Below, one piece after another: positions 19,513 through 21,726 of a stretch of DNA of 30,932 bases (position 1 is the stretch's first letter; every line of letters begins with the position of its first letter). This DNA comes from a virus. Taxonomy: Duplodnaviria; Heunggongvirae; Uroviricota; Caudoviricetes. The position numbers and the translations under genes are program-made. Below the pieces are notes generated by a model. It was not told the origin of the DNA, searched no databases, and worked only from the letters and a program-made list of their open reading frames with translations. The stretch spans positions 1-30,932 of the IMG/VR virus record IMGVR_UViG_2529293142_000025; one strand, 5' to 3'.

Positions 19513-19804
19513 TGTTTGCCTCCTGGAAAATAACTGCATGCCCCAGTTTCTCCGCCAGCGCCAGTTCTGCCTTAGCACCTGCTGACCGCTGCCAGCCTTT
19601 CAGCATGTAAATCGCATCCACACAACGAATCATTGCCATGCAAATATCCATGTAGTGTGGCTGTGTCAGTCCGTCCGGAAGTACTGCCGGGTTTAAGACT
19701 GTATGCCCTTCCCGTTTCAGTTCCTCTTCCGCCTTGTGGAACGCCTCACGGTTGAAATTTTTATATCCGGTCATTGGACCGGCGATATAGACTCTCACCC
19801 TCAC
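19505..19804 (-). CDS. nucleoside 2-deoxyribosyltransferase-like protein (DUF4406-like)
   Basis: 99 aa beginning MRVRVYIAGPMTG...; family assignment from memory. Confidence 0.4.
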   Translation of the reverse strand: MRVRVYIAGPMTGYKNFNREAFHKAEEELKREGHTVLNPAVLPDGLTQPHYMDICMAMIRCVDAIYMLKGWQRSAGAKAELALAEKLGHAVIFQEANSE

Positions 19805-20229
19805 GCCATCACCTCCTGAAAATTACCCTGATAAAACGCCAACACTCGCTGCATAACCTCACTCTTCCGGCACTCGCGACAGATTATGTTCAGGTGTCTG
19901 TCGTAGCGGCGTATTTCTCCGTCTGGTAACTTTCGAATCAGTGTCTGGTCAGTTGTTTTCTCCGGTGTCTTACGCCATTCACGATACGCCTGCTCTGATG
20001 CAAAAACACCGTATTCCCCGGACATATATAAATCACCACAAGCCAGTACATCCACAAGGCAGCGTCGGACCGAATGCCAGCCAGCTCCCGTCGCTCTCTC
20101 CAGTTGCGACATCGTCATGCGTTCATTTTTGCGTACCAACCCGATAATTCGTGCCTTTAGCTCTTCCCGCTGTTCGGATGTAAAAACTTTTGCCACAAGT
20201 CCTCCTGAAAAATCACCTTCACAATTCAT
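19801..20229 (-). CDS. Ren-like protein
   Basis: 142 aa; C-terminal LNIICRECRKSEVMQRVLAFYQG resembles lambda Ren C-terminus; located directly after the P-like gene as in lambda. Confidence 0.4.
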   Translation of the reverse strand: MNCEGDFSGGLVAKVFTSEQREELKARIIGLVRKNERMTMSQLERATGAGWHSVRRCLVDVLACGDLYMSGEYGVFASEQAYREWRKTPEKTTDQTLIRKLPDGEIRRYDRHLNIICRECRKSEVMQRVLAFYQGNFQEVMA

Positions 20230-20891
20230 ACAAAACCAGCTGCCTTCCGGCGTTCATACTCCCGTTTCAGCAACTCAATTGGTGTTGGCCCCGACGGGCG
20301 TTTTGGTGCTGCCAGTTGCCGCCGTACGGGCGGAACGCTGAAGCCGTCACCAACATGCTTTGCCCATTTCGCTAGTTGCCGTTCTGCAAGTCGTTTTAAC
20401 TCCCCTTCGGTCATCTGGCGCTCAATCCCCTTTGAACGCATCTCGAGGCAAATGTGATACAGCACAGGCTGAGACCACGGGTATTTATCGCTTCCGTCGT
20501 ATCGCCAGGACTCATTGCGCCAGCGGCGGTACTCCTTCATCACAACATCAACCGTCAGACCGAATGGATTGGCTCCGCTTTCCGAAATCAGTGCCACAAA
20601 CTCAGCCAGGTCCGGAGGCCATGTTTCACCCGTCCGGCAGCGGTCCATGCACTGGCGGCAGACCTGTCGGATTTGCTGCTCAGTCATCGCGCCAATCTGT
20701 GCAATCCAGAGCTTCGAAGGTGCGGCCCCGTTCTTCTGGGTCCAGCGGTTCGAATAAATCTCCCCCATGAGTTCCCACAGCTTCCAGGCAGTTTCCGTCG
20801 TTGATAAATCCGTTTTCACGTTCCCACTGCTCACGTGCTGCCCGAATTTCCTGAACTGCCCGTGATGCGGTGCCACCTGGCGCGGCTGCAT
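20226..20891 (-). CDS. replication protein P-like (helicase loader)
   Basis: 221 aa; central and C-terminal similarity to lambda P (..YPWSQPVLYH.. vs ..YPWKSNAHYW..); SD AAGGGGGTGA before ATG 20889-20891. Confidence 0.6.
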   Translation of the reverse strand: MQPRQVAPHHGQFRKFGQHVSSGNVKTDLSTTETAWKLWELMGEIYSNRWTQKNGAAPSKLWIAQIGAMTEQQIRQVCRQCMDRCRTGETWPPDLAEFVALISESGANPFGLTVDVVMKEYRRWRNESWRYDGSDKYPWSQPVLYHICLEMRSKGIERQMTEGELKRLAERQLAKWAKHVGDGFSVPPVRRQLAAPKRPSGPTPIELLKREYERRKAAGFV

Positions 20892-21726
20892 GACTCACCC
20901 CCTTGCTGACTGGTTTAACCTGCGCCCTGACGTGATTTACGTGACGGGCGAATTTCTGCTCCCACTGAACCTGCGTGAACACTTTGCCCTCATCGCTCCA
21001 GTAATCCCGGAAGGCGGCAAGTTCAGCAGGTGTAAATTCCGGCTCCGGCAGAGCCACTCCCCACAGTGCAGCCCGTCGTCGGAAATCCGGCGACGGATTC
21101 CAGCCGGCGGTCATCGGAAATTTTCCGATGGGTTCGCTCAGGCCTTCCAGGTAATCAGGTTCCGTTGCCTGCAACGGCAAACCATTCGACTCACTGACCG
21201 GAGCACTCTCGCGCACGCGCGCGTTATGTGTGGGGTTTAATTCTTTATCTGTATCTTTATCTGTCGTGACTCGTCGTGACATGTCGTGACATATGCGTGA
21301 CTCGTCGCGCGCCCCCTCATTCTGTTTTCGTAATTTTTCCCTCTCGCGCTGCGCTCTCTTGCGCTCTGCCGGGGATTTCGCGGTTTGTGAAACGTTGCCA
21401 TTGTCCTCTTTCAGTACCTGGCGTTTTTCCCATCCACTGATCAAATCTCCATCAAGTACCCGCCCCTGCATTGCCTGTAAAATTGAATCAATTACTTCTT
21501 CCGTCACATCAAGCGCACTTGCTAAATCTTCCGCTGTGACATCAATGTGACCACGTAGTGACACGCCGTGACATGTCGTGACATTTCGTGACGCGCTCAC
21601 CAGAAGGTGGATATACACAGCCATCACTGTTGCGATTGGCTGTCCTGACACCCTGGAAATTGTTCGCCACTTAGGATCGTTTGGCATGTCATGCCATAAT
21701 CTGAGCCAGGCGTTAGCCATACTCAC
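20680..21726 (-). CDS. replication initiator O-like protein with DnaT-like C-terminal domain; 3-prime end uncertain
   Basis: N-terminal HTH/replisome-organizer-like region; FPMTAGWNPSPDFRRRAALWGVALPEPEFTPAELAAFRDYWSDEGKVFTQVQWEQKFAR matches the DnaT C-terminal region from memory; contains two iteron arrays; the ORF overlaps the P-like gene by 212 nt. Confidence 0.55.
   Translation of the reverse strand: MSMANAWLRLWHDMPNDPKWRTISRVSGQPIATVMAVYIHLLVSASRNVTTCHGVSLRGHIDVTAEDLASALDVTEEVIDSILQAMQGRVLDGDLISGWEKRQVLKEDNGNVSQTAKSPAERKRAQREREKLRKQNEGARDESRICHDMSRRVTTDKDTDKELNPTHNARVRESAPVSESNGLPLQATEPDYLEGLSEPIGKFPMTAGWNPSPDFRRRAALWGVALPEPEFTPAELAAFRDYWSDEGKVFTQVQWEQKFARHVNHVRAQVKPVSKGVSHAAAPGGTASRAVQEIRAAREQWERENGFINDGNCLEAVGTHGGDLFEPLDPEERGRTFEALDCTDWRDD
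21233..21301. repeat. iteron array 1 with adjacent AT-rich tract (candidate replication origin)
   Basis: AT-rich TTCTTTATCTGTATCTTTATCTG followed by 4 direct repeats GTCGTGAC with 10 bp periodicity. Confidence 0.55.
21545..21592. repeat. iteron array 2
   Basis: 4-5 direct repeats of nTnGTGAC with 10 bp periodicity, same orientation as array 1. Confidence 0.5.

Follow-up and report, generated by a model that had tools for sequence, protein, structure and literature searches.

The replication region of the tailed-phage record IMGVR_UViG_2529293142_000025 (IMG/VR; Caudoviricetes), of which positions 1 to 30,932 were analysed (30,932 nt, hereafter the window), raises the question of whether two adjacent genes truly share 212 nt of coding sequence. 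Both lie on the minus strand. The first occupies the place of lambda O and encodes a putative replication initiator of 348 aa, whose open reading frame (ORF) continues to 20680. The second encodes a putative helicase loader of 221 aa resembling lambda P and begins at 20891, inside the first gene and in frame +1 relative to it. The gene strand around this start reads AAGGGGGTGAGTCATG, with a run of five G at 20902-20898 and the ATG at 20891-20889. A preliminary description of the window, made from the letters alone, had pointed to the overlap, to the G5 run (C5 on the plus strand, 20898-20902) at the ribosome-binding site of P and to a P start at 20891 preceded by a strong Shine-Dalgarno (SD) sequence, all of which were recovered here. 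It had proposed two explanations: a genuine C-terminal extension of the O-like protein, or an indel in the G5 run that hides the canonical lambdoid arrangement. The comparisons reported below point to the first. The overlap is most likely a genuine and conserved dual-coding region and not an assembly error, the initiator being read through to 20680 and the loader from 20891.

Pfam searches place a DnaT domain (PF17948) on residues 203-269 of the O-like protein (65.8 bits, cut-off 25) and give no match of this protein to Phage_rep_O (PF04492). The fold also matches host DnaT structures: PDB DnaT chains align with E=1.9e-20, and the match stops at ...ARHVNHVRA. Host DnaT itself serves in replication restart and is not a phage initiator. 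Judged by sequence, the window initiator is a DnaT-domain protein outside the lambda O family, and the name 'O-like' given to it in the preliminary description holds for its position and presumed role only. The name 'P-like' also holds for the family, as PF06992 (Phage_lambda_P) matches residues 56-188 of the second protein above its cut-off (59.8 bits, cut-off 26). Moreover, a family-alignment profile that includes lambda P itself aligns with the lambda P chains 8v9t and 6bbm over nearly their full length, and homologues of 221-223 aa were found in public databases. Profile match and layout assign P to the lambda P family of helicase loaders.

The double open frame and its distribution

About 100 related loci, drawn from at least nine genera, have both frames open. 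The overlap measures 206-224 nt in these relatives, and 113 nt in one Symbiopectobacterium locus (L018). The arrangement is present in phage Rac-SA53, in PPompW-type prophages and in Escherichia coli chromosomes; by megablast the module was found in 1321 of 5426 complete E. coli genomes, at 87-96% identity. It also occurs in ten genomes of other species (E. albertii, Salmonella, Citrobacter, Enterobacter, Scandinavium, Pluralibacter and an unclassified Enterobacteriaceae bacterium), in about 80 IMG/VR contigs, nearly all of them open in both frames, and in four metagenomic loci where both frames are open. More distant P-family loci with the same arrangement belong to Salmonella, Raoultella and Symbiopectobacterium.

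Outside the overlap the O frame contains 7-12 stop codons per ~151 codons, and inside it none, in every lineage. For the P frame the count outside the overlap is 1-5 stops per 70 codons, and the third frame has 2-6 stops within the overlap. Synonymous-codon resampling was used to calculate how often such a frame would be open by chance. Given the P protein, the O frame is expected to be open with a probability of 0.012-0.09 per lineage for the full-length overlap (0.13 for L018); given the O protein, the P frame is expected to be open with a probability of 0.03-0.35 (0.57 for L018). These lineages are related, and the per-lineage values cannot simply be multiplied. The double open frame exceeds the chance expectation.

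In one locus among about 95 the P frame is interrupted within the overlap: L067 (IMG/VR UViG_2671180296_000011) has a nonsense codon at P codon 52 (CAG to TAG), and the O frame is intact there (LDLEKRGS). This locus is probably a decaying prophage. The other exceptions to the pairing that were considered (overlaps of 8, 61 and 73 nt; loci seemingly without O or without P) proved to be mostly script or contig-end artefacts, L067 being the only real one. In L018 the initiator (positions 1086-1913 of that locus) retains the tail helix, AVRKIRAAREAWERER, and stops after ...VGDHG.

How does an indel in the G5 run, with the true O ending at a TGA just before the P start, compare with these data? Deletion of one G in the window does give AAG GGG TGA and a stop ahead of the P ATG, as the preliminary description had stated, although the spacing is 3 nt and not 4 nt; homopolymers are, besides, prone to sequencing error. 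A sequencing or assembly error is nevertheless vanishingly improbable. The frame relation and the full-length tail recur in about 100 independent loci and in the 1321 E. coli genomes, and the tail contains invariant residues and is under purifying selection (see below). Among E. coli-type relatives the G run varies from G3 to G7 at constant length, through substitution, and in other genera its position is occupied by GGAGGT, GGAGGA, GAGGT or GAGGGGG. All indels in the overlap among relatives are multiples of three, and there is no conservation of the in-frame TGA or TAA that would come to light after a one-base deletion. The G5 run is no more than the SD sequence of P. The alignment of homologous O-like C-termini, one of the checks named in the preliminary description, places the extension in frame many times over; because homologues carry it in this way, the indel reading is refuted and the genuine extension upheld.

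The same run could instead be a site of programmed ribosomal frameshifting, there or elsewhere in the overlap, giving an O-P fusion or a short O isoform. In the window the G5 homopolymer adjoins a +1-frame stop, and rare database proteins (P0085, P0023) join initiator and P domains into a single chain. However, neither the G run nor the +1-frame stop is conserved, and the chimeric proteins are deletion chimeras with one member each and not frameshift fusions. No conserved RNA structure was found around the site (alifold energies of -2 to -7 kcal/mol; z-score of +1.3 in the window), nor any structure that would sequester the P ribosome-binding site or couple P to O translation. In view of the missing conserved slippery site and the deletion origin of the chimeras, programmed frameshifting was rejected as extremely unlikely. 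P0085 and P0023 are single-member initiator-P or DUF1627-P chimeras produced through internal deletions; a further single-member database protein, P0164, has its tail frameshifted after ...GMAAI. All three are likely assembly errors or products of decayed prophages.

Selection, predicted structure and the start of P

Selection on the two frames was assessed from single-nucleotide polymorphisms (SNPs) in 71 E. coli-type haplotypes, whose sequences are related; segregating changes were counted without a phylogenetic model. Changes synonymous in P amount to 17 of 116 possible in the overlap and to 131 of 321 in the P-only part (p=1.8e-7), a suppression of about 2.8-fold. In bins of 74 nt their density is 0.08, 0.14 and 0.15 within the overlap and 0.33-0.47 in later bins, and the step upwards falls just past the O stop. 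Conversely, changes synonymous in O make up 22 of 147 in the overlap compared to 52 of 149 in the O-only part (p=8.8e-5), and their density falls to 0.08-0.10 upstream of the internal P methionines Met69 and Met42. Changes that alter both proteins at once form the rarest class in the distal half of the overlap. Diversity by codon phase is O-like over the first ~100 nt of the overlap and P-like over the remainder. Thus both frames are under purifying selection across the overlap.

AlphaFold2 (AF2) models of moderate quality (mean predicted local distance difference test score, pLDDT, of 68-70) indicate how the shared segment is divided. For P (mean pLDDT 70), residues 1-29 are predicted to be disordered (pLDDT <50) and the first helix spans residues 31-54. 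For the O C-terminal part, modelled as a 153-aa query, the DnaT domain is confident (pLDDT ~90) and is followed by a disordered linker, which houses the SD and ATG of P. The tail itself contains one helix, at positions 93-109 of the query (O residues 288-304), coinciding with the motif TASRAVQxIxxAxxxW....G that is invariant in 18 tails of 50-93% identity; the glycine-rich and acidic end after it is again disordered (pLDDT <50). The O tail helix therefore lies opposite the disordered P leader, and the first P helices opposite the disordered acidic O tail, so that in the models each protein has its ordered element encoded where the other is disordered. Conservation follows the same division: identity in the O frame across genera peaks at 0.81 in overlap codons 11-20, where the P frame is at ~0.5 and the leader varies between genera, and the P frame reaches 0.78-0.89 from codon 31 on.

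These observations bear on the possibility that the O tail is a functionless read-through, P being real from 20891 and the O frame remaining open by P's chance avoidance of stops. Such a read-through is consistent with the mostly disordered prediction for the tail, with the loss of its distal half in L018 and with the distal motifs LEPLD and LDxxD, which are partly forced by the invariant P residues SNRWTQKN and LWIAQIG. Yet the O frame is open in all lineages despite its low expected probability in each; P-synonymous variation is suppressed and rises again just past the O stop; the invariant helix stands opposite a variable P leader; and the tail is kept behind four different initiator architectures (see below). 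We consider read-through very unlikely. The end of the tail was also compared with lambda O, since LDCTDW resembles the lambda O C-terminus, LDLTNTDWIYGVDL, and the L005 tail LDWNNTDW. The idea of a shared motif was rejected because these residues are dictated by the invariant LWIAQIG of P, several genera have DR instead of DW, and hhalign finds no homology.

Where does P begin? Ahead of P helix 1, only the SD-preceded ATG at 20891 is conserved as a start, and no other conserved start codon was found between P codons 1 and 42 in the aligned lineages. The ATG is present in every one of these lineages and the O-frame codon spanning it varies (CAT, AAT, TAT); therefore selection appears to act on the ATG and not on the O residue. 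A purine-rich SD (GGAGG, GAGG or GGGGG) precedes it by ~6-12 nt in nearly all loci and lineages checked. We propose from these signals that P starts at 20891.

The databases present a less uniform picture. Members of the family are 221-223 aa long from Met1, 180-181 aa from Met42, 177 aa from Val45, 153 aa from Met69 or 140 aa from Met82. The RefSeq E. coli entries examined start at Met69, relatives of the window protein, including P0025, P0026, P0037 and P0006, are annotated inconsistently, and P0025 and P0032 begin with MGEIFSNRW, at Met42. If P started at an internal ATG (Met69, 20687, or Met42, 20768), the true overlap would be of the translational-coupling type, 8 nt long for Met69, whose junction with the O stop at 20680-20682 reads ATGACTGA, and the P frame ahead of that start would be no more than an open stretch. 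Besides the annotations, this alternative can draw on the conservation of the ATGs at codons 42, 69 and 82 and of the ATGACTGA junction in the closer group, and on the little constraint added by the first ~24 P codons. It remains unlikely. The P-frame protein before Met69 and Met42 is strongly conserved (AWxLWExMGEIYSNRWxxKNGxxPSxLWIAQIG; 0.78-0.89), with variation mainly at P third positions, and O-synonymous SNPs drop to the low density given above in this stretch. An internal start would cut or remove the predicted helix 31-54, within which Met42 falls. The Pfam match already begins at residue 56, which corresponds to profile position 28. Met69 is replaced by Leu in more distant homologues, whose O stop is elsewhere, and the strong SD and the ATG at codon 1 are conserved in all lineages. 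Shorter P isoforms may be made besides the full-length protein.

Several points weigh against the dual-coding reading and its extensions, in addition to the relatedness of the lineages, the partly forced distal motifs and the shorter P proteins annotated in both GenBank and RefSeq. Over the first ~24 P codons the O-synonymous density is 0.22, compared to 0.25 in the adjacent O-only bin. Because these codons add so little to the constraint, the P leader is weakly constrained, and the assignment of the start to 20891 therefore rests on the conserved SD and ATG, on the open frame and on the lack of a rival conserved start ahead of helix 1. The absence of the acidic distal tail from L018 shows that at least one lineage can do without this part. 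No homology between the tail and lambda O was detectable, and the docking role considered below is argued by analogy. Finally, the double coding is deduced from sequences, and the translation of both frames is predicted.

The tail and the loader as one module

An exhaustive representative search with the tail alone showed that initiators of four kinds end in it. These are DnaT-domain proteins with several N-termini, YdaU-like proteins, a protein with a lambda-O-type N-terminus (PF04492; the tail-carrying relative P0211 has a Phage_rep_O N-terminus), and an HTH_36+Phg_2220_C protein. A word-indexed protein search with the tail returned a few short E. coli fragments and was uninformative. In each tail context examined, the ATG of a P-family ORF lies 206-215 nt before the initiator stop, in frame +1, and is preceded by a purine-rich SD-like stretch. 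The reverse combination was found as well. Megablast matches to E. coli with the same DnaT domain and a different downstream gene (H67, H68) end at ~20925, just upstream of the SD, and one such strain has, after the DnaT domain, an unrelated tail and then a lambda-type P, with an overlap of 29 nt. Where the partner is a lambda-type P, a near-identical DnaT domain thus ends in another tail, and profile homology to the window protein stops where the domain gives way to this tail. In the sequences compared, the tail is always inherited together with P.

The Rac prophage extends this comparison. The gene order of E. coli K-12 ydaU-ydaV is that of the window (ydaS/cro-like, ydaT, initiator, loader), and the 'ydaU' of Rac-SA53 has the N-terminus of K-12 YdaU together with a DnaT domain, a tail and a P like those of the window. 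K-12 itself differs: YdaU has a third kind of tail, ending ...PDSAIPPGFRG, and is followed without overlap by the DnaC-like ATPase YdaV. K-12 YdaU, encoded at 1620-2477 of L102, has ...VNTVSLPDSAIPPGFRG as its end, which resembles the C-terminus of host DnaT. Taken together, the pairings suggest that each tail type matches a loader type.

Lambda provides the closest functional parallel. There too, an origin-binding initiator gene directly precedes a loader of the lambda P family (PF06992), and a disordered N-terminal leader of ~29 residues precedes the helical core of P. A 2025 cryo-EM study describes domain I of lambda P, residues 1-29, as a disordered N-terminal lasso, and domain II as residues ~30-119 (PMC12661323); the boundary between disorder and helix in the AF2 model of the window P coincides with that between domains I and II. 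In lambda the C-terminal region of O binds P and the N-terminal portion of P binds O, and an O amber mutation removing the last five residues was among the mutants used in complementation tests (PMC6022878). The overlap of the window thus co-encodes the two regions that in lambda bind each other. The differences are clear: the lambda O/P overlap is 4 nt (39582-39585), compared to 212 nt out of frame in the window; the window initiator has a DnaT domain and lacks a Phage_rep_O match; and the window P is only 19% identical to lambda P. Between the O C-terminal part of the window and lambda O no homology was detectable (hhalign probability 0.2).

On the dual-coding reading, the initiator would be translated to 20680 and acquire a tail of 78 aa in which an invariant amphipathic helix stands between a disordered linker and a disordered acidic end, while the loader would be translated from the ATG inside the O linker, as a disordered leader of ~30 aa followed by the first two core helices. 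By analogy with lambda, the tail helix may be the element that docks P, or P-DnaB, onto the origin-bound initiator. Since the 5' end of the loader gene would also encode the helix, recombination could not part the tail from the loader, and origin-binding N-terminal modules could be exchanged without loss of the cognate contact between initiator and loader. We advance more tentatively that the overlap is itself a linkage device: with the docking peptide written in the loader gene, any origin-binding module arriving upstream would acquire the cognate tail. That peptide would be the TASRAVQxIxxAxxxW helix, perhaps with the acidic end included. If this is true, the helix would be a minimal transferable O-P (or O-P-DnaB) interface. 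To our knowledge the O-P interface has not been resolved structurally even in lambda.

The overlap shares with long same-strand overprinted genes of viruses and bacteria purifying selection in two frames, suppression of synonymous changes and order opposite disorder. Loss of a stop codon, with extension into the neighbouring gene, is one of the listed routes to overlap (PMC2268670; reviewed in PMC8227390 and PMC6195259), and the window overlap is likely to have arisen by stop-codon loss or extension of this type. The tail is probably the younger frame, overprinted on a 5' region that P already had, because the P leader corresponds in position to part of lambda P, whereas the tail is restricted to the subfamily and has no homology to lambda O. 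The case here is a terminal overlap of two adjacent genes that belong to known families and whose products probably interact, in a double-stranded DNA prophage module that recombines modularly, and not a novel orphan ORF embedded in an older gene.

Coordinates, neighbouring elements and meaning

Features of the O-P junction in the window, with the basis of each assignment
Feature	Position	Strand	Basis
O-like initiator gene, 348 aa including the 78-aa C-terminal tail	20680..21726	-	ORF, Pfam DnaT; tail in frame in every relative examined
DnaT DNA-binding domain, O residues 203-269	20920..21120	-	PF17948, PDB DnaT matches, AF2 pLDDT ~90
SD of P, AAGGGGG with the G5 run, within the disordered O linker	20898..20904	-	Purine-rich SD in nearly all loci checked
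Proposed true P start codon	20889..20891	-	ATG in all aligned lineages
P-like helicase-loader gene, 221 aa	20226..20891	-	ORF, PF06992, lambda P profile alignment
Dual-coding overlap (predicted), 212 nt	20680..20891	-	Both frames open in ~100 loci; synonymous variation suppressed in both
Conserved O-tail helix, O residues 288-304	20815..20865	-	AF2 and invariant columns
Invariant O-tail motif TASRAVQxIxxAxxxW	20824-20871	-	18 homologues
Distal O tail, disordered, glycine-rich and acidic, ...LFEPLDPEERGRTFEALDCTDWRDD	20683..20814	-	AF2 pLDDT <50; P-synonymous SNP depletion
P leader, residues 1-30, predicted disordered; positional equivalent of lambda P domain I	20802..20891	-	AF2
First two P core helices, residues 31-54 and 60-66, inside the overlap	20694..20801	-	AF2, P-frame identity
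Internal ATG, Met69, GenBank/RefSeq P start (153 aa)	20685..20687	-	Annotations, protein P0026
Internal ATG, Met42, RefSeq P start in other genera (180-181 aa)	20766..20768	-	Proteins P0025, P0032

The gene after P occupies 19801-20229 and belongs to the DUF977 family according to the annotation of a related locus. Its start and the P stop share an ATGA at 20226-20229, a 4-nt overlap of the ordinary coupling type, unlike the O-P junction. On the plus strand, antisense to P and O, long ORFs of 116-136 aa are found at 20360-20804 and 20890-21240. Similar antisense ORFs are present in Rac-SA53 and in the PPompW prophage, and they are probably a by-product of codon composition. Inside the O-like gene lie two clusters of direct repeats with a 10-bp period and 3-4 units each (21253-21302 and 21545-21594), 272 bp apart, with units like GTCGTGACAT on the plus strand. 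They are candidate origin iterons, by analogy with lambda, in which iterons likewise lie inside O.

Part of this module is already known: both protein families are described, the tail is contained in RefSeq proteins named 'DnaT-like ssDNA-binding domain-containing protein', and a 221-aa 'replication protein' is in nr. Within the limited collection of literature searched, no description was found of the dual-coding overlap, of its selection signature or of the linkage between tail and loader.

For annotation, the proposed start would mean that the loader is described 40-81 residues too short in a module carried by about a quarter of complete E. coli genomes and by many Enterobacteriaceae. The short P models (181, 153 and 140 aa) lose the leader together with one or two core helices, and a start selection that avoids overlaps is a plausible cause. 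For evolution, the locus would represent a same-strand dual-coding region of ~210 nt in a double-stranded DNA prophage, statistically well supported and maintained across genera. For mechanism, because the co-encoded segments mediate the contact in lambda and the tail travels with the loader behind four unrelated architectures, the short conserved helix is a candidate docking motif, with which the poorly defined O-P interface becomes directly testable. The linkage of tail and loader also suggests how mosaic replication modules may stay compatible.

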